Below are positions 27,766-44,427 of a stretch of DNA of 64,000 nucleotides, one piece after another. This stretch comes from an uncultured Gammaproteobacteria bacterium (lineage in GTDB: Bacteria > Patescibacteriota > Microgenomatia > Levybacterales > GWA1-39-11), in the NCBI GenBank assembly GCA_964427615.1, contig CAYRUR010000001.1:50425-114424 (forward strand). The letters are read 5' to 3'. The position numbers and the translations under genes are program-made. The stretch's first letter is position 1. Every line of letters starts with the position of its first letter. The notes under the pieces are model-generated. The model was not told the origin of the DNA, did not search any database, and saw only the letters and a program-made list of their open reading frames with translations.

Positions 27766-27844
27766 CTCCTTTGCATATCAAGCTCAATATTGTATAATCG
27801 AAAGCGTATTCCGCGGTAGCTCAACGGTAGAGCAGGAAGCTGTA

Positions 27845-28412
27845 GCACTTTAAAAGAATTCTTTATCTGGCTATACTAAAAGTATGGCAGAAAAGAGAAC
27901 GTATGCTGACCGCCGAGAGTATTTAATTATGGCTGTTGCTCGAAGAAGAAAAAAACTTCGGGAAAAAGCTGTTGAATACAAAGGCGGAAAATGTATGATT
28001 TGTGGATATTCTCGCTGCCAAGCAGCGTTAGATTTTCATCACCTGGATGCCAATGAAAAAGAGTTTGGTATCTCGAAAGATGGAATAACAAGATCTTGGA
28101 AAAAAGTTCAAAAAGAGCTAGATAAATGTGTGCTCATTTGTTCTAACTGCCACAGAGAAGTACATGCAGGCATATTGCAGCCCTCTGCAGTAATGCAGAG
28201 TGGAAACATGGGGTGAATTCAGGGAAGCCCGCATCTTCAAAGAAGGGTAATCCTGAGCCAAGCTCGATAAATTGACAATAAAGTAATCGAGAAGGTGCAG
28301 AGACTAAGAGTGAGGAGTCATACCAATAAGCTCTATAAGCGCCCCATACCCTTAATATATGTATTAAGGGTAATGAGATAGTCCACACTTCTGGAAACAG
28401 AAGATAAAAGTG
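27845..28412 (+). mobile_element. Group I self-splicing intron inserted in the tRNA anticodon loop
   Basis: Conserved group I core elements are present: R-like GTGCAGAGACTAA (28296-28308) and S-like GAGATAGTCC (28375-28384), with P7 pairing GACTA/TAGTC. There is a terminal G before exon 2. The intron encodes an HNH ORF in a 5' peripheral region. Confidence 0.7.
27884..28216 (+). CDS. HNH homing endonuclease encoded within the tRNA group I intron
   Basis: 110 aa with CMICGYSRCQAALDFHHLDANEKEF...CSNCHREVH, i.e. an HNH motif (HH..N..CxxCH) with zinc-binding cysteines. Confidence 0.75.
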   Translation: MAEKRTYADRREYLIMAVARRRKKLREKAVEYKGGKCMICGYSRCQAALDFHHLDANEKEFGISKDGITRSWKKVQKELDKCVLICSNCHREVHAGILQPSAVMQSGNMG

Positions 28413-28438
28413 TAACTTCAAGGTTCTAGGTTCGAATC

Positions 28439-30127
28439 CTAGCCGCGGAGCACAGAAGGATTTTGAGACCACAAATCTTCTAAGTTAGTTGTATTATCAA
28501 CCTTTTCCGCAGGTTCTAACCGTGCAGAAATTGTAATTACTTTTTCTTTTGTTTCAGAAATATATTCCAGTGGTCTTTGAATCTGAGGAATAAGAATTTT
28601 GTCCCTAATTTTTAGGTTCGCACCAAGACCTGCAAATATTTCCCGTTTTGTTTGTCTGTCACCATTCTTAAACCAGTAACGGGCATAACATGCAAATTCA
28701 AACGTCTTTTCTGACAGCTCAACCCATTTACTAATTCTGTCTCCTGTATCTCCCAACTTTTCCTCAAGTCTTTGCTTTTCCCTCATCAATACCTCCTTTT
28801 GTGATCTAAATTCTTCATCACTGAGAAGGTTACCATTTGAATTGTGAGGAGATATCTTTAATTTAATAAGGTTATCAATACGCTTCGTAACATCACTGTA
28901 TGCCTCCTGTAACGCTCCTAGAGAAGCATTTCTGTCCTCAACCTCTCTATCATATAGCTCATTAATATACTTGATTGCCCAAGCCTTAAATTTCTCGGAT
29001 ATTTGAATGATAGAGAGTATCTCATCAATTTGTTTCTCAAGCTCTTCTTCTCGTATGCTACCTTGAGAACAATTAGAATCAACACGCTTTGTACAATGAT
29101 AATAAATATAATGAAGCAGGGTAGGATTATTCATCTCCTCAATTTTTACTTCACACTTAGGACAGACATCTTTATTTTGTGATGCAAATTTTTGCTTACA
29201 ATGAGGACAGATAATCTGGTACTTTTCTTCTGCGGTAATAGCAGCTCCACACTCACCACACTTCATAAGACCTCTATACAGAAATTCATAAGTTCTTGCT
29301 CTTGGACTTCCTTTTCTGCCAAGTAGCATTTGGACTCTCTGAAATTCTTCACGAGTAATCATTGGCTGATGTTTTCCTTTATGCCAAACTCCACTACCAA
29401 CGGGATATTCAAATTCCCCATAATAAAATGGATCAGTAAAAATTTTATAGATAAAACTTCTCGTCATTGGTTTTCCTCCTATACTTTTATGCTTGGGAGT
29501 TCTGTAGCCCATCTCGTCATTCAACATTCTAAGAATCTGAGGTGGAGTGTAGGTCCCCGTGAGCATCATATCCCATGCCTTCCTAATGAGAGGGAATCTC
29601 ACTGGATCAACTTTAATGGTCTTATTGCCTTTCTCAGCGTATTTATCATTCATATATCCAGGTTTTGCACCTGAAGGAAGCCATCCTTTTTCTGCTTTTT
29701 CCCGTAGTCCCCGCTTTACATTCTTTGAAAGATCATCAATAAACTTTTGAGCCATCCCAAATTCAACATACATCATAAATGAATTTTCACTTGCTTGATT
29801 GTACTCATTGGCAGGAGTACGCACCTCAATTCCTTTTTCTTTTATCATCCATATAACAGAACCTCCATCAACAGGATTCCTAGCCAAACGATCAACTTTC
29901 CAGCACAAAACGCCATCTATTCCCCCCTCGTACAAATAATTCATCATTTCGTTAAAAACGGGCCTTCCAGGGGCTTTTGCTGACCGTGACTCAGTATATA
30001 CCTTCACCACAGCGATATTGAGTCTTTTAGCCAACTCTTGAAGTTCTTTTATCTGAGAATCAATGGAGAGAACTTGTCTATCCTCTGACTCAGAGCTCTT
30101 TCTTGCATAAATGACATACTTTTTCAT
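28439..30127 (-). CDS. Large serine recombinase (integrase) with intact catalytic, recombinase and zinc-ribbon domains
   Basis: N-terminal resolvase domain [19 protein letters not shown]...[16 protein letters not shown], a recombinase domain, and zinc ribbon CGECGAA...CPHCKQKF...CPKCEVK with coiled coil. The 3' end overlaps the tRNA 3' exon by 12 nt. Confidence 0.85.
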
Positions 30128-30177
30128 AATCTTATTTTTATTTTGACCCGTCGCTTTTCCTAAGTCAACGGCCCTAC

Positions 30178-30741
30178 TTAACCCTTAATATTTTCATGAA
30201 TCCACCTGATATCACTTTCATCTAAGAGAGAGAAACGCTCTCTATCAAAATCCCAGTCGCTATTTTGATAACGTTCTTCTGATGAACCACCACCAGAAAC
30301 CTTATTCTTATCCTTATAGGAAACTATAGTATTACCACTACTTTTGCCTGAATCCTGTTGCATTGATGCATTATTTTGTTGCACCCTCGCATCATTAAAT
30401 TGCATACCTGAATTAGCTGACTGCACCTCTGCAATATCACTTACTAATACCCTATACCAACCATCCCCAATTTTACTCAAAACTCCCTTCTTTATTAGGC
30501 TATTGCGTGTTCTACAAACCTTTGAAGGTGACCAATGAAGAATGTTAGAAATATCGTAATCTGTAGCCTCAACTGTCATATATGTCTCTGTGTGTTTTTT
30601 ATCCCAATCATACAAAGCAAGACATAGATCAAATAAACGAAATTCTTGGTCTGTAAATTCCATTTCCTTTGCAATGACATGCCTGTTTCTTTTAACTTTT
30701 TGGTACGTTGTGTTTAGCCTTCTCTCAATAGGTCTTTTCAT
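30178..30741 (-). CDS. Hypothetical protein, possibly DNA-binding, carried by the integrative element
   Basis: 187 aa with a basic N-terminus, a putative winged-helix-like segment ([19 protein letters not shown]) and a low-complexity Q/N/S-rich C-terminus. Function unknown. Confidence 0.45.
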
Positions 30742-31311
30742 CTTTTATGCGATACTGTTTATAAATAAAAGCAAAAAAGTTCAAGAATCTTTTCGCAACT
30801 AATTGTGCCTCTTTTTCAGTAATATCTTCTCCATATTCTTCTTTCCATATTTTTTGAAACTCACTAATTGCACTTTTACTCAGCATGTTTCCTCCAATGA
30901 TCGGTTTTCAACAAAAATAATCTTTTTGAAAGTTTTAATAGTACCCAGAAGTATTCTTCATGTACAAATTGGGAATTTTTGCTGAAGTCACTTACATGCT
31001 CAATACATTTACCATAGAGAGAAAACTGAGAGTAGAGGGTGAAACTATTACGTCTTATACTGTGAAACTGTATGTCTTTTTGGGTAAGTAAGATTGGGAA
31101 GGTCTTTTTATCCTTGGTCGCAGAAAGGTTTTGTTTTGAGATTTCGTCTTTCATATACATATCCACACTCACATTTGTGCGGATGTGTACCGACCTTTCA
31201 ATCTCAGTACCTATGAAGGTATAGCGCCACTATACAAAATGCAATTTAGATTGTCAATACAGGTAAAACGTGTTATCTGAAGACACAAAATATACATCTA
31301 TATCACAGGTG

Positions 31312-31533
31312 TTACAAAGAGAGTAGTTCTGATAAGGAAATCTTTAGTGCTTCTGCAATTTTATGAACGGTATATATTGGCGGGTTACTCTCGCCTCTTT
31401 CAATCCTACCCATGTATGTTCTGTGAATTTCAGCATCATCCGCAAGATCTTCTTGGGAAATGTTCTGCTTCTTTCTCAGTTCCCTTATCCTTTCTCCGAA
31501 TCTTTTTAAAAATACATCCTTTGACTGCTTCAT
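31312..31533 (-). CDS. XRE-family helix-turn-helix transcriptional regulator (Cro/CI-like)
   Basis: QNISQEDLADDAEIHRTYMGRIERGESNPPIYTVHKIAEALKISLSELL is a canonical HTH_XRE. Confidence 0.8.
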   Translation of the reverse strand: MKQSKDVFLKRFGERIRELRKKQNISQEDLADDAEIHRTYMGRIERGESNPPIYTVHKIAEALKISLSELLSL

Positions 31534-31578
31534 GTTGAAATCGTATTCAAATGAACACTTGCAGTCTACACACGGAGA

Positions 31579-31788
31579 GTGTACAATACTCTCAACATTA
31601 TGATTTTTTCAAAGAAAAAGTGCCCAAGATGCAACAGCATAAACCTGAATAAAGTAAAGCCTAGTTTGTGGAAAAAATGGCAAAACGCATCAATGAACGT
31701 AATGTTCTTTCCATTTAGCTTATTAAGAAAACAAGTAAAGACTTTAAATGTGTGTCGCGATTGTGGGTTCTCTTGGGAAGATAGGTAA
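31579..31788 (+). CDS. Small zinc-ribbon protein
   Basis: 69 aa with CPRCNS...CRDCGF, two CxxC pairs. Divergent from the XRE gene across a 45-bp gap. Confidence 0.4.
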   Translation: MYNTLNIMIFSKKKCPRCNSINLNKVKPSLWKKWQNASMNVMFFPFSLLRKQVKTLNVCRDCGFSWEDR

Positions 31789-32071
31789 GTATGGGGAAAT
31801 ATAAGAGAGATTTTGAAAATTTTTACTATATCTTTTTACTAACTACGATACCTCAAAATCAACTTCAAAAATAGAATTTTAAATAGGGGGCATACTTTTG
31901 TAGAAGTAAAGAGACATACACGCTTACTCCCTTATAAACATGTTTTTCAACCTAATAAACTCTTATTTTGAATATCTTCCACTATATAATTGTTCATAAA
32001 ATCAGGTTATCTTGATATATCAAAGAGAACCTGCATACACACATTACTTTATCATTCAGATAATAAAGTAG

Positions 32072-33541
32072 TTGACAACTCTTTATCACTGGATTAATAT
32101 AGAGCTGATGGATAATCAAACTCACGAAAAAGTATATACTTACCTTCGGAATCAACTTGCACAGGCTGAAAAAAGACTTCAGGCATACACTGTAGATAGA
32201 GAAGGAAAACCATATTTGAAGCGAAGTGCAGCACTTGTACTTGAAAAGTATGTAAAAAACTTTTCTCAGAGTGGAAAGGAACCAAGATGGGTTGCTGTTC
32301 CAGGATTAAGAGGAGTGGGTAAAACCACATTGCTAGCACAAATATATACAGAATTAAGTTGTCCTCCTGGATATAAACTATATATTTCGCTAGATGAGGC
32401 GAGTCGTGTCCTTGGTGTAAGCTTAACAGACATACTTACAGTACACGAGGAATTGTTAGGAAAGCTCTATGAAGAACTTGATAAACCAGTATTCCTGTTT
32501 ATTGACGAAGTTCAATACGAAAAAAATTGGGGATTAGTTCTGAAGAGTATATATGACAGAAGTAAAAAAATATTTATCTTCTGTACAGGATCATCTGCTG
32601 TATCTTTACAAACAAACCCAGACGTATCAAGAAGAATTGTATTTGAAAAACTTTACCCACTTTCCTTTGTTGAATACATGCTTCTTAAACATCGTAAAAA
32701 GCCTATTACTGGCCTTGGAAAACAATTAAGAGACGCGCTAATTGCATCTTCTAGTGGAGAGGAAGTATATAAAAGACTTCTTAACTATCAGAATGATGTT
32801 AATAAGTACTGGATAGGAGTAGGAAGACTTGAAATTCAAAAGTACTTCAAATACGGCTCATTACCTTTTACCTTTCAGTTTACACAGGAACCCTTGATAT
32901 ACCAACAAATTGAACAGACCTTAACCAATATTCTTAACAAAGATATTCCTCAGTTAAGTAAATTTGAATCTGACACAATCACAAAAATGTATCAAATTCT
33001 TTACACAATCTCTGGTTCAAGTGTAACAAGCCTAAACTCCTTATCAAAAACTTTTAAAATATCAATTGTAACAATGGCAGAAATACTTGAGGTTTTTGAG
33101 AAATCAGAGATGTTACTTAGAATATACCCAAATGGATCACATTTTGGGCAAGTAAAAAAACCTTCAAAATATCTTTTTATCTCACCAGCATATAGGAGTA
33201 TGTTTTTCAACCTTATAGGTAGCACTTTTTCATACGATAATTACAAAGGGTTTCTTTTGGAAGATGTCGTTGGATTGTATCTCTATCGCACTTTGGGTTT
33301 AAGGTTTGGAACAAGCCTTACTTATGATAGTGCAGAGGGAGGAGCAGATTTTATTATAAGCTTTGATGATAAAAAAATAGTAGCTGAGATAGGTTATGGA
33401 AAAAAGGACTTTCAACAAGTAAAGACAACAATGAAGAGAGTTGGGGGTACATATGGCTTATCAATCTCTTCAACCCGACTTGCATTTGATAAAGACCAGA
33501 ATGTAATCTCAGTACCACTTGGCTACTTTTTACTAATATAA
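32072..33541 (+). CDS. AAA+ superfamily ATPase of the COG1373 / AAA_14-DUF4143 type
   Basis: Walker A VPGLRGVGKTTLL, Walker B FLFIDEVQY, and a C-terminal DUF4143-like region. 489 aa. Confidence 0.65.
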   Translation: MTTLYHWINIELMDNQTHEKVYTYLRNQLAQAEKRLQAYTVDREGKPYLKRSAALVLEKYVKNFSQSGKEPRWVAVPGLRGVGKTTLLAQIYTELSCPPGYKLYISLDEASRVLGVSLTDILTVHEELLGKLYEELDKPVFLFIDEVQYEKNWGLVLKSIYDRSKKIFIFCTGSSAVSLQTNPDVSRRIVFEKLYPLSFVEYMLLKHRKKPITGLGKQLRDALIASSSGEEVYKRLLNYQNDVNKYWIGVGRLEIQKYFKYGSLPFTFQFTQEPLIYQQIEQTLTNILNKDIPQLSKFESDTITKMYQILYTISGSSVTSLNSLSKTFKISIVTMAEILEVFEKSEMLLRIYPNGSHFGQVKKPSKYLFISPAYRSMFFNLIGSTFSYDNYKGFLLEDVVGLYLYRTLGLRFGTSLTYDSAEGGADFIISFDDKKIVAEIGYGKKDFQQVKTTMKRVGGTYGLSISSTRLAFDKDQNVISVPLGYFLLI

Positions 33542-33705
33542 CTAATCTTATGCAATAAGTTGGAGATTAATTTCATATCCTAACTCTGCTACTATTTTTA
33601 TGGGTCACACGTTTGTTCATTGCATGCTTCTGAGAACTAAGAAGAAATAATGAGCTATTTAAGAGCAGAGAAATGGAATTAAAGTAATCATAAGGTTATT
33701 TTGTT

Positions 33706-34659
33706 TTGAATAATTCTACTTGTAGAGGATATTCCTTCATGCCAAGACATAACAAAAAACATCACAAAATCCCAAAAACATATCTTGAAAGATTCACTGA
33801 TTCTGAAGGGTTTGTATGGATTGCAGATAGAAATCTCAATCTCTATCCCCAGAAACCAATAAACACTCTTACTGAAAATGATTATTACACAATACGGTTT
33901 AGAACAGGCGGTGGAACCCTTAATGTTGAAACAAAATTTTTAGGAGGAATAGAGACAAGATATTCAAAAATATATAAGCAAAAACTTGAAGGACAACAGC
34001 CCATATCTCAAGAGGACAAAGCAAAACTTTCAATATTTGTTGCCTCTATGTTGGAACGTCAACCAATGACACGACAGTCTCTTGAGAAGTTTTTCTCAGA
34101 AATTGAAGAACATATAACTCACATGAGAGGTTTACCAGACCATGTTAAGGAAAAAATGGCATCGGTTCCCGTGCTCTCTGGAAGTGGTCCATCATTCTCT
34201 GCGGATGAATTACTTGAAGCTGGGAAAGATGTCAGTTCACTTCACTCATCTCTTATACCCGACACTGTTGTTGATATTGCACCTATCATTTTTGATATGA
34301 AATGGGCATTTATGGTAAAACCAGAAAAATCAGAGCCTTTTATAACTTCCGATAATCCTTGTGTAATGGTTGACCCAGTGGGAGAAGCAGAATTCGGAAG
34401 GGGAACGTTTGGCGCAGCTCCAGGGTTTGTAAAAAAACATATAGAACTTACTCTGCCATTATCCAAGAATATGGCTCTCTTATGTGGATGGAAACTGGAG
34501 CATGACTGTTTTTACATAACAGTACCAGAAGGGCAGGTCAAAAACATAAATTTAAGGACAAAACGACACGCAGATTATGTTATTGGACACGATAAGAAAA
34601 TGCTCGAAGAAATGATAGAGAGAGTGAAAGCTTTTGAGAGAAAAACAGGCTCAAAATGA
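33706..34659 (+). CDS. DUF4238-like protein (a family reported as an antiphage gene)
   Basis: N-terminal NKKHHKIPKTYLERF resembles the conserved HH.P..YL..F start of DUF4238. 317 aa. The probable true start is the MPRHNKK ATG at 33739. Confidence 0.45.
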   Translation: MNNSTCRGYSFMPRHNKKHHKIPKTYLERFTDSEGFVWIADRNLNLYPQKPINTLTENDYYTIRFRTGGGTLNVETKFLGGIETRYSKIYKQKLEGQQPISQEDKAKLSIFVASMLERQPMTRQSLEKFFSEIEEHITHMRGLPDHVKEKMASVPVLSGSGPSFSADELLEAGKDVSSLHSSLIPDTVVDIAPIIFDMKWAFMVKPEKSEPFITSDNPCVMVDPVGEAEFGRGTFGAAPGFVKKHIELTLPLSKNMALLCGWKLEHDCFYITVPEGQVKNINLRTKRHADYVIGHDKKMLEEMIERVKAFERKTGSK

Positions 34660-34771
34660 TATATAGAAATTTCTTATATTGTCCTACATGCGGAACCAAC
34701 TATTTAGATTCAGAATTCTAGTACCCCACATGAGGCAGTAGAAACTCTGGTATACTTTTTGTGAAAATATA

Positions 34772-35464
34772 ATGAATAAGTCAGTAATCTACGCACGAGC
34801 ATTTGGAAAGCTCTACAAGCTATTTGATATTGTACTGAGAAACGATGAATCAATATACTTATACTTTCCAAGAAGAAAAGGCTACATTATAAAGAATAAG
34901 CAGGATATAGACCTTGGTGGCCAACAGAGCAAAACTTTTACCTTTAACAAGAATGTTCATGATAGAGTTACTAATCCATATGTGTCATTTCATCCAGGTA
35001 AAGGAGTAATACATGTGAATGCATTTAATGAAGAGAAAAAGATAGTACCTTTTCTTAAAGATAGAATGAGTCATTCTTTTAATGAGATATTAGATTCACA
35101 AACGTTTTTTCCTATACTAACAGTCCTTATCCCACCTGACATATTCAGCTTTGACAGTTTTGATGTACCACACAAGAATAATCTTATAGCTAACATTCCA
35201 CCTAATTTTCCCAAGGCTCTTTCAGTTGACTTAATAATCCATGAAAAGGGTGGTTATGTTGATAAGACTGAGCTGCCTTATGCAAGATTAAGAGATTTAG
35301 CTTTTATGGCTCATCTAAAAGATATACATACAAATAAAATCTCTTATACATTAGTTTTTAACAATGTTGAGGTGAGTGGTGAAGAGCTTTCAAGAGAAGT
35401 AATTACAATTATATGGAACAAGGAGATGCCGTTTTCTTTCTGTCTGAAGCCTCTTAAGGATTAG
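34772..35464 (+). CDS. Hypothetical protein
   Basis: 230 aa uninterrupted ORF with no recognised motif. Its stop overlaps the stop of the convergent recombinase fragment by 4 nt. Confidence 0.4.
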   Translation: MNKSVIYARAFGKLYKLFDIVLRNDESIYLYFPRRKGYIIKNKQDIDLGGQQSKTFTFNKNVHDRVTNPYVSFHPGKGVIHVNAFNEEKKIVPFLKDRMSHSFNEILDSQTFFPILTVLIPPDIFSFDSFDVPHKNNLIANIPPNFPKALSVDLIIHEKGGYVDKTELPYARLRDLAFMAHLKDIHTNKISYTLVFNNVEVSGEELSREVITIIWNKEMPFSFCLKPLKD

Positions 35465-36816
35465 GAAACAGACAAATAATAGGTTCTGATTGAGTCCATC
35501 AGGCGGAGCCAGAGTTCTCTTATCCGAACCAAGTCCATGTCTATGCAGGCTTGGAAGGCTTCGGTATAAGTGATATCAATGATTTTTTTGTTCTTAATCC
35601 AGATTTTTTGGATAAACCACTTCAGGAATTGTTTCCTCTCATTTTTGGTAAACGATTTATACAGTGCTGGTAAATCTTTTAGGGTGTTTATAATGGTATC
35701 TATCTTTTGCTCGTCTAAATTAGCGGATGGCCTTTTCAGTTTAGCAATTTTACCTTCAACTGCTTTCAGCTCTTCTCGTAATGGCACATATTTTGGTTCA
35801 ATTCGTTCTTTAGGAACCAGTTCTGATATTAACTGATCCTCCAGCTTATCCTTTTTCTTTTCGATAATTCTTTTACGATCTTCCAAGGCTTTAATTTGAC
35901 CTTGAATATCTTTACCTTGGGATCTCATGACATCCTCAAGCTCTGTCCGCAAAGCTCGTAAGAATCGTTCTCCAAATTTAATACCAGCAATATGGTCTTC
36001 GAGTTGTTTATGAACATCTTCCATGGGAGCATAAGGTTGAGTACATTTTATCTTTCTGTTTTTTGGCCCCATACATCGGTAATAACGGATTATTAACCCA
36101 CTTGGTTTTTTGTGCTCCTCACCGCTCATTAAAGTAGTGCATTCTTTACAAAAGACCATACCAGCCAGGAAAAAATTATGTTTTCTGGTTCTATCAGCGC
36201 CTTTATTGTGTTCTGCAAGCATAGCTTTTGCCTTATTTATATCATCCATCTCTACTACTTTAGGGTGGTGCCCTGGGTAAACCTTGCCCAAATATAAAAC
36301 TTTCCCTGCATATCTGACATCAGTAAGGATCGTATGAATTAAGCTATGACTTACTCTTTTACCATTAGGAGAGCGGAATCCTTCTTGATATAATTCTTCC
36401 TCTAACGTATAGACCGAAGGTGAAAGCCGGTTGTTAAACCTTCTAAAAATCTCTTTGATAAAATACTCTCGCTCCTTGTCAATTTTCCAGGGTACGCCTT
36501 TTTGAAATGAGTTAATATAGCCAATTCGTGCTTGTCCTGGTTGGAATCCTTTTTCAGCAAGAGCGATCATGGTACGCCTTGTTTTCTCACCAGTTATTTC
36601 TCGTTGGAGTTGATTAGCACCAGCCATCACCAAATCAACAAATTTTCCTACTGGATCATCTCCAAAGTTTGGTTGTTGCGTAGCAATAAGCTCGATATTA
36701 TGTTTTTTGAGAAGTGCTTTAACAGCTAAGTGATCTTGAGCATTTCTGGCAAACCGATCTGTTTCTTCCAGGAGAACGATATTTACATCCTTATCTGTAG
36801 GATATAATCGGGTTGT
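35461..36816 (-). pseudogene. 5'-truncated large serine recombinase that has lost its N-terminal catalytic region
   Basis: The ORF track shows a recombinase domain plus zinc ribbon from MVMAGANQ onwards. Manual upstream translation in the same frame gives TDKDVNIVLLEETDRFARNAQDHLAVKALLKKHNIELIATQQ (the C-terminal half of the resolvase catalytic domain; compare VDRLARN in the intact copy). The frame then hits a stop at 36817-36819 with no Ser-containing YxRxS motif upstream. An IS481-type transposase gene follows. Confidence 0.7.
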
Positions 36817-36835
36817 TTACACTTTTGGGAGGTGA

Positions 36836-37650
36836 AGACCTATCACAATTCATAAGAATACTCGATTAACCCCACATTTGCGAAAGGAGATATTTGAAAA
36901 GTATCATGTAGAGCGGATACGAGTAACTGAACTGGCTCGGCTGTATCATGTTTCACGAGTAACGATTTACAAAGTTTTGAAACGAGCTCGTCAGCAAGAG
37001 CTGTACCAACGCTCAAGTACTAATCTGCGTTATCGTAGTCTGGAGTATGGACTCAAGCGCTTAGCCAAGATCGAACAAAAACTTGAAGAAAAGCTAAAAA
37101 CACAGGCCAAACGTTATAACAAAGCCTATCCTGGTGAGATGCTCCATGTGGATACTTGTTCTCTGCCTCATCTACGGGGTGAGTCTCGTTTTACGCCTCA
37201 GGAATGTTTGCATATAGCCATTGATGATTTCTCTCGAGAGCTCTATGCAGCTATTCTGCCTGATAAAACAAGTGCTTCTAGTGCTTTGTTTTTAAAACAA
37301 GTTCTTGCTGAGTGTCCTTACACCATTGAACAAGTATACTCAGATAACGGGGTTGAATACAAAGGAAATCCTGATAAGCATGCATTTATGCAAGCTTGTG
37401 CAGAGCATGGCATTACCCAACGGTTTACCAGAGTCAGGACACCACGCACGAATGGAAAAGCAGAACGAGTGATCAGAACTATCTTTCAGATGTGGCATGA
37501 TAAGCATGAATTTACCAGTCGAGCTCAGCGGAAAGTGCTGTTAGTGCGTTTTGTCAATTATTGCAACACAGTTTGGGTTAAATCTTGTTGGATACGCAAC
37601 TGACGGATTCTATTTGCTAATTTTTTATCCTCTCGTTTTAACCTCCTCCT
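36836..37650 (+). mobile_element. IS481-family insertion sequence (boundaries approximate)
   Basis: Transposase ORF flanked on the left by the broken recombinase frame. Terminal inverted repeats could not be defined confidently by eye. Confidence 0.4.
36878..37603 (+). CDS. IS481-family DDE transposase (HTH plus rve integrase-core domain)
   Basis: N-terminal HTH RVTELARLYHVSRVTIYKVLKR, DDE core with HVDT..., SDNGVEY and TNGKAERVIRT. The apparent start is TTG at 36878; the frame is open from 36836. Confidence 0.8.
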   Translation: MRKEIFEKYHVERIRVTELARLYHVSRVTIYKVLKRARQQELYQRSSTNLRYRSLEYGLKRLAKIEQKLEEKLKTQAKRYNKAYPGEMLHVDTCSLPHLRGESRFTPQECLHIAIDDFSRELYAAILPDKTSASSALFLKQVLAECPYTIEQVYSDNGVEYKGNPDKHAFMQACAEHGITQRFTRVRTPRTNGKAERVIRTIFQMWHDKHEFTSRAQRKVLLVRFVNYCNTVWVKSCWIRN

Positions 37651-37809
37651 TTTTATGCGCTTCTTTCCCTCCTTCGATTCCATGTTTTTTAGTCTCGCAA
37701 GGAAGCAAATGGGTTACCATTAGCGCAAAGACAAGGAAAAGAGCTAAATGTATTGACTTTAGGATCTATTCTCGATACGCTTTTATATAGACCAGGCGCT
37801 AAGACAAAT

Positions 37810-38004
37810 ATGAAATTTCAAGTTCTCAACAAACATGACAATCCGAAAAGAAAGGAGCTTCTTAAAAAGGAACTACAGCTTTTTAAGGATCATCTCCAGA
37901 CACTTGCATGGCAATCTCACACCATTTTGAGTGGATTAAAAGAAGTACAGCAACGAAAACAAATAGAAGAAAAGATTAGACAGTTACAAACTCAACCAAA
38001 ATAA
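37810..38004 (+). CDS. Small coiled-coil protein immediately upstream of the MoxR-like ATPase
   Basis: MKFQVLNKHDNPKRKELLKKELQLFKDHLQTLAWQ...IEEKIRQLQTQPK. Ends 6 nt before the ATPase start. Uncertain whether it is expressed. Confidence 0.35.
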   Translation: MKFQVLNKHDNPKRKELLKKELQLFKDHLQTLAWQSHTILSGLKEVQQRKQIEEKIRQLQTQPK

Positions 38005-38010
38005 AAATGT

Positions 38011-39732
38011 ATGTCACAACCAACAGAGCCCCATATAGAAGATAATGTTAGAGGACTGGATCAGCGTGCCGAAAAACAACTTGTAAGACGAGAAATTTCT
38101 GAAGGTGTTAGTGAGTATTTTGATACTAAAGCAGAAGCTCGCACAGCAGCAGAGCATACACGAGGTGCTATTGGTCAGGATTTAAGATATGCCGAGGGAT
38201 TAAGAGATACGGGTGGGTCTACTGCTGAAACGGGCATCAGACGAATTAAGGATATTGCAGATCAGGTTGATACAGATACAGCAGCGTTTGAAGCAAAAGC
38301 AGATCGGTTGAGTTCTCCATACGTTATTTCTCCCCAGTTAGCAAAAGAACATAAAGTTGCAAGATTTCTTAAAAAACCACATTTACTTGAAGGTGAACCT
38401 GGAACAGGGAAAACCTCGCTTGCTTACGCCGTTGCAGGTGACGAAGGTTTGCCCTTAATTCATTGCCGAGGGAAAAGTACGCTAACTGCTCAATCAGTTA
38501 TGTATGAGGTAGATTATGTTGGGAGATTAAATGATGCCATGCTTGCACAAAATATCCCCGATGTATTACGAGGACAGACACAACAATGGGTCAAGTATTT
38601 AGAGTCTGGTGGGGATCCTAATGCAGCAGAATTCCAAAGTTTTATGGTTGGTTTTGAACACTCAGCAAAGTTATTAAATTTAGAAAAAGTATCAGATGTT
38701 AGAAGATACTTAAAATACGGTGAATTAGGAGAGGCTATTATCAGAGGAGCACAGGGTGAAAAAGTAGTTTTACTCTTTGATGAAATTGATAAGGCAAAGC
38801 GAGAATTCCCCAATGATTTACTTGATGAATTAGAACATCTAACTATACGAATCAGAGAAACAGGTGAGGAAATAAGCGCACCGAGAGAAAATGTTTTTGT
38901 TCTAATCACCTCAAATCATGAACGAGACTTACCAGAACCATTTTTAAGAAGATGCGTTTATAGTTATATAGATTTTCCTGATGCTGAACAAATGACAGAA
39001 ATTGTGAGGGCACATACTCCGGATATCAATGAGAGACTTCTTGAGAGCGCTGCAAGAAGATTTTACGAGATACGAGGACGAGCTGACTTACAGAAAAAAC
39101 CGTCTACATCAGAAATGTTAGATTGGGTACGAGTTCTCCAAGAGTTTGGAGTGGAAGAAGTAACTGACGAGACCCCATTTGCTGAAACACTACTTAAATA
39201 TAAGGAGGATCAAGATAAGTTAGGTGTCAGAGGGCGAAGAGAAGAAAAACTAATACAATCTGGTTTACCAGAATCAGTTGTCGCAGCACTCAATGGGGAT
39301 AAAGTAGTTCGCTTAAGAGCTGCCTCGTATTATGACCGAAATCCAAGCCCACAAGCATTAGTAAAATTAGCAAACGCTGGGTATCGGTTTACAACCGCAA
39401 AATCTGAAGACAGAAATGGCAGACCGTTTAATATACACGCCGATAATGTAAGACGAGTTGATGACTTAACATTTACTATTCTACCTTACGAAAAAACCAA
39501 GGATGGTACTATTACAAGCCCAAGTGATTTATACGAAATTTTAGAAGGAGCAGAAGCTATTGAATCAACAATGGAAGTGACAGATACACCAATAGAACTT
39601 GCTTCTATAGAAGATGGCAATGAGTATTTTATAAAAGGCAAAGATGCCCAAGGAAGAACAGTCTATCGAATGTCAGATGGGCGATTTGTCTACGAACAAC
39701 AAGTAGGGCAACATGCCAGCGAAAACTATTAA
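38011..39732 (+). CDS. MoxR-like (AAA_5) AAA+ ATPase with N- and C-terminal extensions
   Basis: Walker A LLEGEPGTGKTSLAYAVA, Walker B VVLLFDEIDKA, sensor region VFVLITSNHERDLPEPFLRRC. About 200 aa of unrecognised C-terminal sequence. Confidence 0.75.
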   Translation: MSQPTEPHIEDNVRGLDQRAEKQLVRREISEGVSEYFDTKAEARTAAEHTRGAIGQDLRYAEGLRDTGGSTAETGIRRIKDIADQVDTDTAAFEAKADRLSSPYVISPQLAKEHKVARFLKKPHLLEGEPGTGKTSLAYAVAGDEGLPLIHCRGKSTLTAQSVMYEVDYVGRLNDAMLAQNIPDVLRGQTQQWVKYLESGGDPNAAEFQSFMVGFEHSAKLLNLEKVSDVRRYLKYGELGEAIIRGAQGEKVVLLFDEIDKAKREFPNDLLDELEHLTIRIRETGEEISAPRENVFVLITSNHERDLPEPFLRRCVYSYIDFPDAEQMTEIVRAHTPDINERLLESAARRFYEIRGRADLQKKPSTSEMLDWVRVLQEFGVEEVTDETPFAETLLKYKEDQDKLGVRGRREEKLIQSGLPESVVAALNGDKVVRLRAASYYDRNPSPQALVKLANAGYRFTTAKSEDRNGRPFNIHADNVRRVDDLTFTILPYEKTKDGTITSPSDLYEILEGAEAIESTMEVTDTPIELASIEDGNEYFIKGKDAQGRTVYRMSDGRFVYEQQVGQHASENY

Positions 39733-39735
39733 CTT

Positions 39736-41307
39736 ATGTATGAAGGCGCAGAAACAAGTCCACAACCGCAACCACCTCATATCCCAGAACTATCTTCCCA
39801 GCAAGAAGGCGGACATGATTTCCAATATGACCCCGAAGCCCAAAGTATTCTTGTCCGTTCTGTAGATAGGTCAGGGACAATTAAGGAACAAAAACATCCC
39901 TTTCAAGAACTTCTTTACTCTCTGCGAAATGAAGGTGTTCAAGCTACAACTAGCGAATGGCTTGATCTTCAACGTTGTTTAGCAGAAGGCCAAGTACAAA
40001 GTCTTGATGACTTATATGTCATTGCCCGGAGCTTGCTGGTAAAAGATGTCTCAGGATTTCCATCATTTGATACTGTGTTCGGAAGAGTTTTTTATGGCGT
40101 TGAACCACCAAAGCCAAAAAATGAAGATGAATGGAGTGATGAATATGAAGAACCAGAAGAAGAGCCTCAACAAGAACGAGATCAAGATGAGGCAGAAGAT
40201 GAAGCCACAGAAGAACCTATTCAAAAGGAAAAAGAAGATATAGAAGAAGTGGTAGAAGCAACTACAAAAACTTCGGAAGATGTTCATGGTGGTGATGAGG
40301 CGACCAAAGACATAGAAGATTCTCCAAATGCTGCAAATGAAGGCAAGCAACTTGATAACCATGGTGCTGAAAAAGGAAAGAGTAAAGAAAATCAAAAGAA
40401 AAAAGGCGAAGGTGGAGGCCAACAGCAACAAAATGCTCAGGGTGGAGGTAATCAACAAGAAAAAGGACAAGGAGGCGGTGACAAAAATACTGAAGGAGAA
40501 GGTGGCGATGGTGAAAAAGAAAATGATGCCGGTGGAGGTAAAAGGTTAGAAAAAGCAGAAGGTGTAGTAAAGGAAGGAAAAGGTGGGTTTTCTGCTCGTG
40601 AACGAGTCATGGAGCGAAGGTATGATGGCTATGACAAAGACAAGATCTTAGGATATGAACAATTTAGCCAAGTTCTTGCAAAACTTACTACTATTATGCG
40701 TGATGCAACTACAATTAGGACATCACGATTAGATCAGCTTGCTACTGCTCGGAGTATTGCACAGCATGGCGGCGTACCAGAATTTGTTTGGGAAGAAGAA
40801 GCAGAGGAAAAGCCAAAAGTTGTTGTATTATTTGACGTTGGAGGAAGTACTGATGAATTCCGTCCTATTATGGAAAAACTTTTCGCCGCTGCAAAAGATA
40901 CTATTGATGAACTTGATGTTTATTATTTTCATAATGCTATCTACGGCGATGTTTGGCCACAGAAAGATGGTAACTGGGGGGAGCACTTTATTCCAATGCG
41001 AGAAATACTAAAAAGAGATGAAAACACCAGGGTTATAATTGTAGGTGATGCTTGGATGGCAGAAGGTGAGCTACATGGTGGAGGTTCTTATTATGATGAA
41101 CAAGAAAGTTCAGAAACCGGATACGATAACTTCAGAAAAATACAACGAACATTTCCTCATACTGTCTGGGTAAATCCGATTTTAGAAAGAGATCATGAGC
41201 AATGGGATAATTCAGGAACAATTGCAGACATTAAAGGTATTTTCCCAATGTATGATTTAACTCTACGAGGTTTAGAAAATGCAGTTAGACGTTTAATGGA
41301 AGAATAA
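39736..41307 (+). CDS. vWA-domain protein (partner of the MoxR ATPase) with a long acidic/Gly-rich disordered linker
   Basis: C-terminal VVVLFDVGGSTDEF (MIDAS-like DxGxS/T) ... IIVGDAWM. The central ~170 aa is E/D/K/G/Q low complexity (EDEWSDEYEEPEEEPQQ...GGGQQQQNAQGGGNQQEKGQGGG). Confidence 0.65.
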   Translation: MYEGAETSPQPQPPHIPELSSQQEGGHDFQYDPEAQSILVRSVDRSGTIKEQKHPFQELLYSLRNEGVQATTSEWLDLQRCLAEGQVQSLDDLYVIARSLLVKDVSGFPSFDTVFGRVFYGVEPPKPKNEDEWSDEYEEPEEEPQQERDQDEAEDEATEEPIQKEKEDIEEVVEATTKTSEDVHGGDEATKDIEDSPNAANEGKQLDNHGAEKGKSKENQKKKGEGGGQQQQNAQGGGNQQEKGQGGGDKNTEGEGGDGEKENDAGGGKRLEKAEGVVKEGKGGFSARERVMERRYDGYDKDKILGYEQFSQVLAKLTTIMRDATTIRTSRLDQLATARSIAQHGGVPEFVWEEEAEEKPKVVVLFDVGGSTDEFRPIMEKLFAAAKDTIDELDVYYFHNAIYGDVWPQKDGNWGEHFIPMREILKRDENTRVIIVGDAWMAEGELHGGGSYYDEQESSETGYDNFRKIQRTFPHTVWVNPILERDHEQWDNSGTIADIKGIFPMYDLTLRGLENAVRRLMEE

Positions 41308-41318
41308 TCCCTCAGCTT

Positions 41319-41546
41319 TTATAAAGCTATTGCAGGAGCTTGAGAACTCTCTGTTTTTGCCCTATAATCGCTTATGGTACGGATAATATCCCAGAGGGGG
41401 AGCCATAGTTGATTATCATTGTACGATAATATCGTATCAAATGGTTTTTGAGCTTGAAATTGCACGTTTTTACCCTCTAATTTCAGGTTCTGAAGTGTAA
41501 GCCTTATTAACTGCCGTCTTTCTTCAACTTCTGAACTTTCAAACAA
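41319..41546 (-). CDS. Small hypothetical protein, last gene of the minus-strand four-gene cluster
   Basis: 75 aa ORF with no motif. Confidence 0.3.
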   Translation of the reverse strand: MFESSEVEERRQLIRLTLQNLKLEGKNVQFQAQKPFDTILSYNDNQLWLPLWDIIRTISDYRAKTESSQAPAIAL

Positions 41547-41652
41547 TTCATACGCTTTATTTGCCAGTTCTAGTAGGTATTTAGCCGTGATGTAGTAGTT
41601 ATCCTCTGCTTCCTGTAATAATGCCAGTATGGTATCTATATCCGCAATCTGT

Positions 41653-42129
41653 TCACAGAACGACTGATAAATCTGTCATGGTCGCTTTCAGTAATACACC
41701 TGTAGCTATATCATATTGGGGTGTTTGCATGCCCTTTATTATGTTTAGCTGTTGTTCCAGTATCTGTATTTGAAGCTCCGTCATATACGCCTCACATTCT
41801 TCTTTTTGTCTTTCCCAGTCTGATTTTTTGATAGTTACAGGCGGGTCATATCTTTCAAAATTAACTAAATCAACTTCAGGTGGTTCGTATATCGGTAGCT
41901 CTGGCATTTTGATAGTCTGCAAAATGTCTAAAGCAGGAAACTTGTAAGCTGTGATCGTCTTCAAAACTTCTGCCATGTTTGAGTTTGCTATCTCGGCTAA
42001 AGTAGTCCCTAGTTTGGTAAATTGCTCATGATTTGCTTCTACAATCGGTTTTAATGCTTCTGCTCGTTCTTCAACAGACATCTTATCCAAATCGTAGAGA
42101 GTTACTTTTTTATCAGATAATTTCGGCAT
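41653..42129 (-). CDS. Hypothetical protein, third gene of the minus-strand cluster
   Basis: 158 aa, acidic, with coiled-coil-like segments. No motif recognised. Confidence 0.4.
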   Translation of the reverse strand: MPKLSDKKVTLYDLDKMSVEERAEALKPIVEANHEQFTKLGTTLAEIANSNMAEVLKTITAYKFPALDILQTIKMPELPIYEPPEVDLVNFERYDPPVTIKKSDWERQKEECEAYMTELQIQILEQQLNIIKGMQTPQYDIATGVLLKATMTDLSVVL

Positions 42130-42155
42130 ATGTCATTACATCTTCAAAAAACGGT

Positions 42156-43154
42156 CTATAAAAACCGTTCAGTTATGGGCAATAAATGTTTTCGTATTGG
42201 CACTGGAAACATGTGTAAAAACTTATTCCACTTTTCAACTTTGTTTTCTGGAAACTCTGCAAACATCGGGTCTTTTTGAAGCATTTTCTGTTCATATGGT
42301 AATAAGCGACACAGTCTAAATGGTATTTTGCCTTGAGCTATTTCTTCTTTCGTCCAATTATCTTTTACTCCAATTGCCCCAGTACCCTTACGCACCATTA
42401 CAATCACTTTCTCATCGGGGTCTTTACTAAAATCAGGGTGTACATCAATGACTTCAGCCTTGTCGTAGGTCGCTTTGTATATTTTTACCAATCGTGTCAT
42501 TACTTCAAAGTATGCAAGGGTCTTATTTACAAGCTTCATTACATCGTCTGTTTTATACACCTTAGTAGGACTAGGAATACGTACCTCATCATCATATAAA
42601 CAGTAATCAGAGTGAAAAACTGCGTTTCTCAAGTCTTTATCAAAAATACTTACTAATGGCTCAATGTTTTTTTCCAAACCTTGGATTTTTGCCATTTCCT
42701 TTATTTTGTTTAACTTTTCAGAAGCGAACATTGGTCTAGTCTTGCCACTTTTCCCGAGCTTTATATCTGGAAAGCAAAACGCAGAGTATCTGTTGCCCGA
42801 AATAACCCTCAGTAAATTACACAGCAAGTCGTATGGATAAGCGGCTTCTAATATTAAGCCGTAGAGGACAAGGAATAAATGCAACTGCTCGGTGTTGTAG
42901 CAAACTTTGTACTTCAGCTTATTAAAGGTTTCAAAAATATCTTGAGTTGTTTCAAATGCGTCCCAACCCGCATCATGCATTCCCTTTATATTTATTAGTG
43001 TGCAAATAAACTCAAAATCGGATTGTTCCTGTGCCTTGGCAAAGAGCGGGTCTAAAGCATTGAAGTAATCAACCAAAGCTTGTGCGTATGTGGGGTTAGT
43101 GTCCTTTGGAACATTGTGTGCTATCCATAATCCATTTTCGTCTCGTTTTATCAT
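42156..43154 (-). CDS. Hypothetical protein with a HEPN-like Rx4H motif
   Basis: 332 aa. Contains DLRNAVFHSDY (R-x4-H) in a predicted helical context. Separated from the upstream TIGR02391-like gene by 4 nt. Confidence 0.45.
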   Translation of the reverse strand: MIKRDENGLWIAHNVPKDTNPTYAQALVDYFNALDPLFAKAQEQSDFEFICTLINIKGMHDAGWDAFETTQDIFETFNKLKYKVCYNTEQLHLFLVLYGLILEAAYPYDLLCNLLRVISGNRYSAFCFPDIKLGKSGKTRPMFASEKLNKIKEMAKIQGLEKNIEPLVSIFDKDLRNAVFHSDYCLYDDEVRIPSPTKVYKTDDVMKLVNKTLAYFEVMTRLVKIYKATYDKAEVIDVHPDFSKDPDEKVIVMVRKGTGAIGVKDNWTKEEIAQGKIPFRLCRLLPYEQKMLQKDPMFAEFPENKVEKWNKFLHMFPVPIRKHLLPITERFL

Positions 43155-43157
43155 AGG

Positions 43158-43931
43158 TCATATAGTAGTTTTTATTTCTGCTTGGTCTAATAGGTTCATA
43201 GCAAGGCTACTTAAAGATAGGTATTCGTAGGCTCTTTGAGGGTCATCTATCTTTGCGTCAGAAGTGTGGCTTTTTTCGTTTCTGAACATATCAATAGCCA
43301 TTGTTAAAAACTTTACTCCTTCATTGAAGTCATGGTCTACATTACTGGCAACAGCACCTTTAATATGTAACTTAGTGTTTCCAAAAGCCTTAGAGCCTGT
43401 TTCATATCCCGTCAAATCTCTTAATCTATCTCTAACAATCTTAAATCCTTTTTCTACAGCCTCTGGGTATTCTGCTTTTTCAAATAAGCTCTGGCATTTT
43501 GCAAAAATCTCTGGGTGTAAAACAGAAAGGTCGTGTTTTAATTGCGAAACAATTTTTTTAGGAGTTTTACCCATAAACTCTTGATACTCTGGCTCATTTT
43601 GTATTTTCAGAAAGTAATCATCAAAAGCAGGTAACAACTCAATATGATAAGAACCATCGTCTGGCTCGTTCAATCCATACATAGCTCCAGCTTCTCTTAT
43701 GCGATTTCCTACTTTAAGAGTGATAATCACTTTTTCTTCCTGCTCTAGCTTTGCAAATAGTAGGCTAAGTTCATCGCCTTTATATTTATTATTGAGGTTC
43801 CGTGTGGCGTGTATTTTCAAAGATTGTCCCGATGGTGTAATTTCTCTTACATCCTCAAGCCTATTTAGTAAAAAATAAAGTTTCTGCTTGCCGTTCATCA
43901 TATAGTCATTACATTTTCGTAAAATGAGCAA
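43158..43931 (-). CDS. Protein with a C-terminal TIGR02391/Abi_C-like (HEPN-superfamily) domain
   Basis: C-terminal AVEKGFKIVRDRLRDLTGYETGSKAFG...LHIKGA...NEGVKFLTMAIDMFRNEKSHT (R-x4-H) resembles the TIGR02391/Abi_C consensus AV.KAF..VE.RLRELSG...KAFG...FRNP.AH. An alternative start is ATG 43901. Confidence 0.55.
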   Translation of the reverse strand: MLILRKCNDYMMNGKQKLYFLLNRLEDVREITPSGQSLKIHATRNLNNKYKGDELSLLFAKLEQEEKVIITLKVGNRIREAGAMYGLNEPDDGSYHIELLPAFDDYFLKIQNEPEYQEFMGKTPKKIVSQLKHDLSVLHPEIFAKCQSLFEKAEYPEAVEKGFKIVRDRLRDLTGYETGSKAFGNTKLHIKGAVASNVDHDFNEGVKFLTMAIDMFRNEKSHTSDAKIDDPQRAYEYLSLSSLAMNLLDQAEIKTTI

Positions 43932-44118
43932 GCTCTATTTTATCATTGTTTAGCAATAAGTAGGAGTATTAAGTGTAAGCGGATTGGATTTCAAAAGTTT
44001 CAAAGACCGTTTTTATGTTCTGTAAGCTAAACCCGAACTCTATTTCTCGGTTACGGAACACATCAGCTAGTGGAGCCAAATAGAACAAACTACATTTTAT
44101 TCATGATATACTTTAGGT

Positions 44119-44427
44119 ATGTCTAAAAACCCTATTATTAATGCTTTGAGTGCTTCAGGGTATATCATCCTCGTTGTTTCTGTTATCACCTTTATATCTC
44201 AAACCCAGAAGAACAAGCCTGATACTTTTTTGGCTCCAATTATATTTTTATCACTACTTACTCTTTCTGTTACCGTAATGGCATGTCTGTTTTTTTATCA
44301 ACCTTTGCAGCTGTTTATATCGGAAAAGAAAAAAGAGGCAGTAGATTTATTTGTTAAGACAGTGGCTATATTTGCAGGATTGACACTTATTGCTTTAGCT
44401 TTACTTCTTACAGGGGTTATCAAGTAA
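44119..44427 (+). CDS. Small membrane protein (3 TM helices)
   Basis: 102 aa, entirely hydrophobic helices. Confidence 0.4.
   Translation: MSKNPIINALSASGYIILVVSVITFISQTQKNKPDTFLAPIIFLSLLTLSVTVMACLFFYQPLQLFISEKKKEAVDLFVKTVAIFAGLTLIALALLLTGVIK

Follow-up and report, generated by a model that had tools for sequence, protein, structure and literature searches.

Three unlinked cargo genes, two from defence-associated families, on a serine-recombinase element at a split tRNA-Asn gene

Genes of the plus-strand array

We analysed a stretch of DNA of 64,000 nucleotides (nt), referred to here as the window (GenBank assembly GCA_964427615.1, contig CAYRUR010000001.1, positions 50,425 to 114,424 of the forward strand), and focused on a group of five genes at window positions 31312-35464. 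A first-pass annotation had described a divergent XRE regulator and zinc-ribbon pair followed by three plus-strand genes, which encode a COG1373/AAA_14-DUF4143 ATPase, a DUF4238 protein and an uncharacterised protein of 230 amino acids (aa), and it had proposed that these three might form an undescribed multi-gene anti-phage variant. All five open reading frames (ORFs) were present as described. We found, in contrast to the proposal, that the ATPase, DUF4238 and 230-aa genes are independent cargo and are not linked to one another. The five genes are as follows:

31312..31533, minus strand: XRE-family helix-turn-helix regulator, 73 aa; Pfam HTH_3 2.1e-16; divergent from the plus-strand array
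31579..31788, plus strand: Cys4 (zinc-ribbon-like) small ORF, putative gene, 69 aa; CPRC...CRDC; alternative ATG at 31600
32108..33541, plus strand: AAA_14-DUF4143 ATPase, standalone, 477 aa; Pfam AAA_14 1.8e-25, PADLOC PDC-S01 3.7e-31
33739..34659, plus strand: DUF4238 protein, standalone, 306 aa; PF14022 9.2e-39
34772..35464, plus strand: 230-aa uncharacterised protein, predicted all-beta, of a small orphan family; 5 close homologues, 70 representative clusters

The ATPase ORF opens at 32072 and the DUF4238 ORF at 33706, and homologue lengths put the true starts at ATG 32108 (nearly all of the closest ATPase homologues are 477 aa) and ATG 33739. Independent assemblies of two sequencing runs both yielded this DNA, which lies on an NCBI contig of 330 kb. 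Because conserved homologues exist elsewhere, the ATPase, DUF4238 and 230-aa genes are real genes and not chance ORFs. The gaps before them measure 320, 198 and 112 nt, respectively, a promoter-like site (TTGACA-17-TAATAT) lies directly upstream of the ATPase gene, and the GC content drops to 0.33-0.34 over the module. Among named homologues, those nearest to the cargo genes belong to Patescibacteria (Levybacteria, Buchananbacteria, Woesebacteria, Curtissbacteria and Roizmanbacteria), from which we infer that the host is probably a member of this group.

The XRE assignment held, and homologues of the regulator were found in three of the fetched loci (L083, L006 and L076). It also matched the PADLOC Control_protein model (2.3e-20). 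We rejected its identification as the control (C) protein of a restriction-modification (R-M) system despite this strong likeness to the hidden Markov model (HMM), because the element has no methyltransferase or restriction gene. For the zinc-ribbon-like ORF, the CxxC...CxxC pattern is present in the translation, but every Pfam zinc-ribbon match was below threshold and none of the fetched loci contained a homologue.

The description of the ATPase was borne out, and PADLOC models placed it in the candidate class PDC-S01, with a match (PDLC04787) that spans model positions 14-358 of 412. Its family is very large, with more than 1264 matches at 1e-10. In 120 homologues, Walker A (GxRGxGKTT), Walker B (FxDE), TGSSA and RR motifs are at least 90% conserved, as is a C-terminal ED...GADF...E(x5)K set, and the window ATPase has all of them. 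DUF4143 has been placed in the PD-(D/E)XK nuclease superfamily (PMC3424549; PMC12988326). Our best inference from the sequence is that the ATPase is a self-contained ATP-dependent nuclease. It resembles PADLOC PDC-S01 in its two-domain AAA_14 and DUF4143 architecture (about 84% of the model is covered), in keeping the Walker A/B and nuclease-type residues, and in being a standalone gene. It differs in its DUF4143 match (1.1e-6), which at 28.9 bits is barely over the Pfam cut-off of 28.1.

An inverted repeat of 29 nt (86% complementary) spans the ATPase stop codon: one arm (33373-33401) falls within the coding region, on the conserved ...KIVAEIGYG... nuclease motif, and its counterpart (33571-33599) is 30 nt beyond the stop; the z-score of the RNA fold is -4.2. 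We rejected a conserved regulatory hairpin, because the repeat is absent downstream of homologous ATPase genes. Either a local terminator-like hairpin or a scar left by recombination from another AAA_14 gene could account for it.

The match of the second protein to DUF4238 was unambiguous, at 134 bits against a cut-off of 27 and over positions 1-280 of the 281 in the PF14022 model. The literature statement of the first-pass annotation was also found to be correct, as a single DUF4238 gene from an E. coli P2 hotspot confers strong resistance to T7 (PMC9122126). In the P2-like phage pro483, the DUF4238 gene (gp11) sits between gpA and the portal gene, and its product matches the PADLOC model DUF4238-Pers at 1.5e-219 over positions 1-309. 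Alignment of the window clade to the pro483 protein with hhalign gave a probability of 98.8% over 268 columns, which is homology over the full length. Like DUF4238-Pers (Rousset et al. 2022), exemplified by pro483 gp11, the window protein consists of a single domain of about 300 aa that PF14022 spans along its whole length, with the same motifs (N-terminal HH..P..YL..FT, E..L...E, FITSDNP, PG[FL]..KD and N..RH), and its gene is variable cargo of a mobile element without a conserved partner gene. The setting is different, with a CPR-like host (CPR, candidate phyla radiation) and a serine-recombinase element in the window, and E. coli and a P2 prophage for DUF4238-Pers.

An AlphaFold model of the DUF4238 protein had a predicted local distance difference test (pLDDT) score of 90. 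The sole informative match in BFVD was an uncharacterised protein of phage Smp131 (E 2.7e-10, template modelling (TM) score 0.53), and the PDB held neither a structural match (best E 0.57, TM about 0.1) nor a sequence match. In 40 DUF4238 sequences, H9, E64, E72, R107, E236, N271 and R273 are invariant and T203-S204-D205 nearly so. These invariant residues, together with a predicted fold that has no solved relative, suggest that DUF4238 is an enzyme.

Within one DUF4238 subclade, a conserved gene of its own follows downstream; this gene encodes 266-304 aa and overlaps the DUF4238 gene or lies at most 9 nt away (L016 8920-9816, L019 8889-9689, L026 502-1416 and L036 8913-9779). The two members scanned (L016 and L019) had no Pfam match. 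This subclade may represent a true two-gene variant, unrelated to the 230-aa protein.

For the 230-aa protein we found no Pfam, PADLOC, PHROG or phage-genome match, in agreement with its description as uncharacterised. Its family falls into about 70 clusters, with members that consist of one domain and are some 230 aa long; D25, S27, P69, S72, H74, H81, D97 and H157 are nearly invariant among them. The structural model has an all-beta fold (pLDDT 77) and retrieved only generic beta-sandwich matches (TM about 0.2). A profile of 42 family members matched nothing in Pfam or among PDB sequences.

Independence of the three genes

We examined the occurrence of the three genes together, starting from each of them in turn. 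The DUF4238 loci comprised 56 from species-representative genomes and 4 metagenomic loci, with flanks requested to a maximum of 8 kb that were shorter at contig ends. An ATPase homologue was found in none of these 60 loci (phmmer, and an HMM built from 120 homologues), and neither was a relative of the 230-aa protein. ATPase homologues of 75%, 72% and 67% identity (three homologues in seven loci) were solitary, with differing and unrelated neighbours, and none of them had a DUF4238 gene beside it. Likewise, five relatives of the 230-aa gene with readable context had neither an ATPase nor a DUF4238 gene nearby. The first-pass annotation had itself named a failure to co-occur outside the locus as grounds against its three-gene unit, and we found zero co-occurrences across genomes. 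The unit therefore fails, because its genes were found together in none of the other loci examined.

We clustered all neighbours found up to 5 kb from 59 DUF4238 genes, and the sole recurrent family also present in the window was that of the serine recombinases (8 of 59 loci). The other recurrent neighbours were ABC-type ATPases (six loci), the unknown downstream partner of the one subclade (four loci) and a further family (three loci), and the window has none of them. DUF4238 behaves as a lone gene in this comparison, as no neighbour family occurs in more than 8 of the 59 loci and the tightly coupled partners are heterogeneous.

These results bear on the hypothesis that the ATPase, DUF4238 and the 230-aa protein constitute one undescribed three-gene anti-phage system under XRE control. 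Such a system would explain why the genes are adjacent, on one strand and in one order, downstream of a divergent XRE gene resembling R-M control proteins, and two of the three genes do belong to defence-associated families. However, we observed no co-occurrence in about 75 related loci, the genes are separated by 112-320 nt with a promoter-like site ahead of the first, and both annotated families have been described as single-gene (PMC9122126; PMC12988326). With conserved synteny absent, the hypothesis is already largely refuted, and we consider it scarcely credible.

The arrangement of a related element also argues against a three-gene system. The module had been placed within an integrative element, and this placement was supported by a serine recombinase with a full domain set and by a sister element, L083-85. 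The backbone of the window element would consist of the XRE repressor and the following genes, all on the minus strand:

28439..30127, minus strand: large serine recombinase, intact, 562 aa; Resolvase + Recombinase + Zn_ribbon_recom
30178..30741, minus strand: 187-aa backbone protein; weak winged-helix / replication-initiator-like matches
30725..30886, minus strand: 53-aa backbone protein; homologues in related elements

The sister element shares with the window the recombinase (593 bits between the intact window protein and that of L083), the 53-aa protein, the XRE regulator (9.8e-17) and DUF4238 (60% identity). The 53-aa homologue occupies the equal position in L083 (9.5e-6), and a further homologue is present in L082 (5.5e-12). 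The 187-aa protein had a sub-threshold Pfam match to HTH_Crp_2 and weak PHROG matches (about 2e-4 to 9e-4) to a transcriptional regulator and a replication initiator O-like protein. In the sister element, a gene for a 617-aa Ser/Thr kinase is found in the slot of the ATPase, and genes for 141-aa and 227-aa proteins are found in the slot of the 230-aa gene. Thus, DUF4238 was retained while both of its neighbours were exchanged between the sister elements.

In L083 (5139-7924), the kinase gene stops 8 nt upstream of DUF4238, as compared with the 198-nt gap in the window, which suggests translational coupling in L083. One possibility is that DUF4238 serves as the shared effector of a modular two-gene system and that its upstream partner can be swapped; in such a system the partner would be the AAA_14 ATPase in the window, the Ser/Thr kinase in L083 and DUF5677 in L013 and L014. 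Consistent with such a model, 18 of 61 loci have a same-strand upstream gene that overlaps DUF4238 or ends within 60 nt of it, and the heterogeneity of the tight partners is what would be expected of swappable sensor modules. In contrast, the other 43 loci lack a tightly coupled upstream gene, no more than two of the tight partners show any mutual relationship, the window pair is itself widely spaced, and the ATPase clade is solitary elsewhere. Moreover, the E. coli prototype functions as a single gene (PMC9122126). We regard the modular pair as improbable. The same low probability applies to a broader version, in which DUF4238 and its interchangeable partners would be a modular two-component immune or exclusion system of a Patescibacteria-centred clade, spread by serine-recombinase elements, with the 230-aa family as a further new element-borne accessory enzyme.

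The element and its integration site

Upstream of the element lie dnaG and two sigma-70 genes. The insertion lies downstream of dnaG-rpoD and uses the 3' end of a tRNA-Asn gene as its site. The last codons of the recombinase gene overlap the 3' acceptor strand of this tRNA (28439-28452). The features flanking the element and its cargo are the following:

27810..28452, plus strand: tRNA-Asn(GUU), split, integration site; Rfam intron 100.5 bits; ARAGORN on joined exons
35461..36816, minus strand: second serine recombinase, remnant; Recombinase + Zn_ribbon_recom only, without catalytic N-terminus
36878..37603, plus strand: insertion sequence (IS)-type transposase (rve integrase core); Pfam rve 2.7e-11, rve_3 5e-8

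In a related genome (L005, RpoD 62% identical), an uninterrupted tRNA-Asn follows rpoD at the orthologous place. Synteny with L005 returns only at window positions 44107-44424, and we therefore delimit a variable island of about 15.6 kb (about 28453-44100). The L005 site is not empty; it holds an island of 3.6 kb, compared with the 15.6 kb of the window. In L005 (9847-10693), the intact tRNA-Asn is followed after about 80 nt by a gene for a homologue of the 230-aa protein (45% identity), without a recombinase in the vicinity, and the same chromosomal hotspot thus holds a 230-aa gene in a different arrangement. Other relatives of the 230-aa gene occur with the same recombinase type and an XRE-like gene (L076) or with XRE (L006). 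We conclude that the 230-aa family travels with this element type, independently of the ATPase and DUF4238.

We found no direct repeat of the tRNA 3' end and no convincing boundary repeat that could serve as attachment (att) sites and mark the right-hand boundary of the intact element. The second recombinase aligns to residues 64-420 of the intact one and lacks residues 1-63, including the catalytic serine. Its frame is open to 36816, where it abuts the rve-type IS transposase, and a search for the missing N-terminus beyond the IS did not find it. The second recombinase and the IS look like the decayed remnant of an earlier element, with tandem accretion at the same site.

A recombinase gene also overlaps the 3' end of a tRNA in L019 (tRNA-Asn, 3714-3788) and in L010 (tRNA-Arg, 3978-4054), which suggests tRNA 3' ends as the targets of these recombinases, with the element providing the end of the tRNA. 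No tRNA was detectable next to the sister element L083. DUF4238 is cargo of serine-recombinase elements in the window and in L083, L016, L019, L010 and L043.

The window element resembles known large-serine-recombinase elements in having a recombinase with Resolvase, Recombinase and Zn_ribbon_recom domains at its edge, and an XRE repressor followed by a divergent gene array. We also found no long att direct repeats in it, as expected for a 2-bp crossover. It differs from them in the overlap of the recombinase 3' end with the tRNA 3' end, an arrangement more typical of tyrosine-integrase islands. Further differences are the absence of phage structural genes, and the decayed second recombinase and IS fragment alongside, which suggest tandem accretion.

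The tRNA-Asn gene at the integration site is itself interrupted. Its 5' exon (27810-27843) and 3' exon (28413-28452) are separated by a group I intron of 569 nt (27844-28412; Rfam Intron_gpI) inserted in the anticodon loop after U35, with G as its last base. The intron contains an ORF of 110 aa that is HNH-like (27884-28216). ARAGORN overlooks the tRNA unless the exons are joined, and the joined exons fold as a canonical tRNA-Asn(gtt). In a shallow search of the literature, we came across no description of a bacterial tRNA-Asn that carries a group I intron.

The remainder of the variable island carries additional genes. At 38011-41307, genes for a MoxR-like AAA ATPase (573 aa) and then a VWA_CoxE protein (523 aa) make up a pair that matched no defined PADLOC system. 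Within the VWA gene, a periodic repeat of 30 nt (40367-40562) is apparently purine-rich and of low complexity. At 41653-43931, on the minus strand, are three consecutive genes, two of which encode proteins of 158 aa and 332 aa without a family match and one a 257-aa Hypoth_Ymh protein (PF09509). The Hypoth_Ymh domain is often found in abortive-infection-like contexts.

Passenger genes and their possible roles

We consider it probable that standalone passenger genes, and not a three-gene system, make up the region as a mosaic carried by a serine-recombinase element at tRNA-Asn. According to this model, the element would have inserted downstream of dnaG-rpoD in a host that probably belongs to the Patescibacteria (CPR). 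The genes of the plus-strand array diverging from XRE would have been acquired independently and would probably be transcribed separately. The ATPase would act alone as an ATP-dependent nucleic-acid sensor and nuclease, and DUF4238 would be a single-gene anti-phage effector like that of the E. coli P2 prophage hotspot. The 230-aa protein, predicted to be all-beta and with conserved His and Asp residues, would be the third cargo gene, travelling with such elements.

The contexts of DUF4238 relatives have a defence-island flavour in a raw census. The relative of 64% identity, which is the nearest with context, comes after a Type I R-M operon and a helicase gene. Other homologues have as neighbours AbiE, methyltransferases, PD-T4-3-like GIY-YIG proteins, SoFic, PIN and DUF5677. 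A defence role for DUF4238 and the ATPase is plausible, resting on remote homology for DUF4238 and on membership of a candidate class for the ATPase.

Several observations weigh against the mosaic model or against the roles that it assigns. The window DUF4238 is only 24% identical to the validated P2-prophage type, and it matched the PADLOC model DUF4238-Pers only partially (E 7.3e-8, 30 bits, positions 187-283 of 309). PDC-S01 is itself a guilt-by-embedding candidate class (PMC12988326), and its one representative tested in E. coli B was outside the four candidates that protected against T7, T5 or T4 (PMC12881386). The DUF4238 neighbourhood counts carry no background rate. That the genes are probably separate transcription units is suggested by their spacing only. 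Finally, with no att repeat found to mark the right-hand end, the 230-aa gene may be part either of the intact element or of its decayed neighbour.

Some of the same observations would be explained if the genes serve the element itself, through maintenance or addiction, exclusion of competitors, or replication and partition, and not host immunity; the family names would then say nothing about phage defence in this lineage. Every gene sits on an integrative element, and in L076 and L006 members of the 230-aa family are again found together with these recombinase and XRE types, where they adjoin LexA-like, FtsK-like and PIF1-helicase genes. In addition, AAA_14-DUF4143 genes are extremely abundant (PMC12988326), and the sole tested PDC-S01 representative was not among the protective candidates (PMC12881386). 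However, DUF4238 homologues are also found away from recombinases, beside R-M, AbiE and other defence genes, and one member of the DUF4238 family has measured anti-phage activity (PMC9122126). Addiction and defence roles are also not mutually exclusive. We consider a purely element-serving role unlikely, and favour the mosaic of standalone passenger genes.

Our analysis removes a false lead, as there is no new three-gene system at this locus, and it flags a small orphan family, that of the 230-aa protein, as travelling with these elements. Current understanding is unchanged unless the genes are shown to act in defence. To our knowledge, the immune repertoire and mobile elements of CPR-type bacteria are little characterised. 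Comparison of the window with its sister element offers a clean example from nature of how cargo is exchanged while its slot stays fixed. Our results also show that DUF4238 and PDC-S01, two defence-linked single-gene families, are brought into ultra-small CPR-type bacteria by serine-recombinase elements, as cargo that can be swapped.

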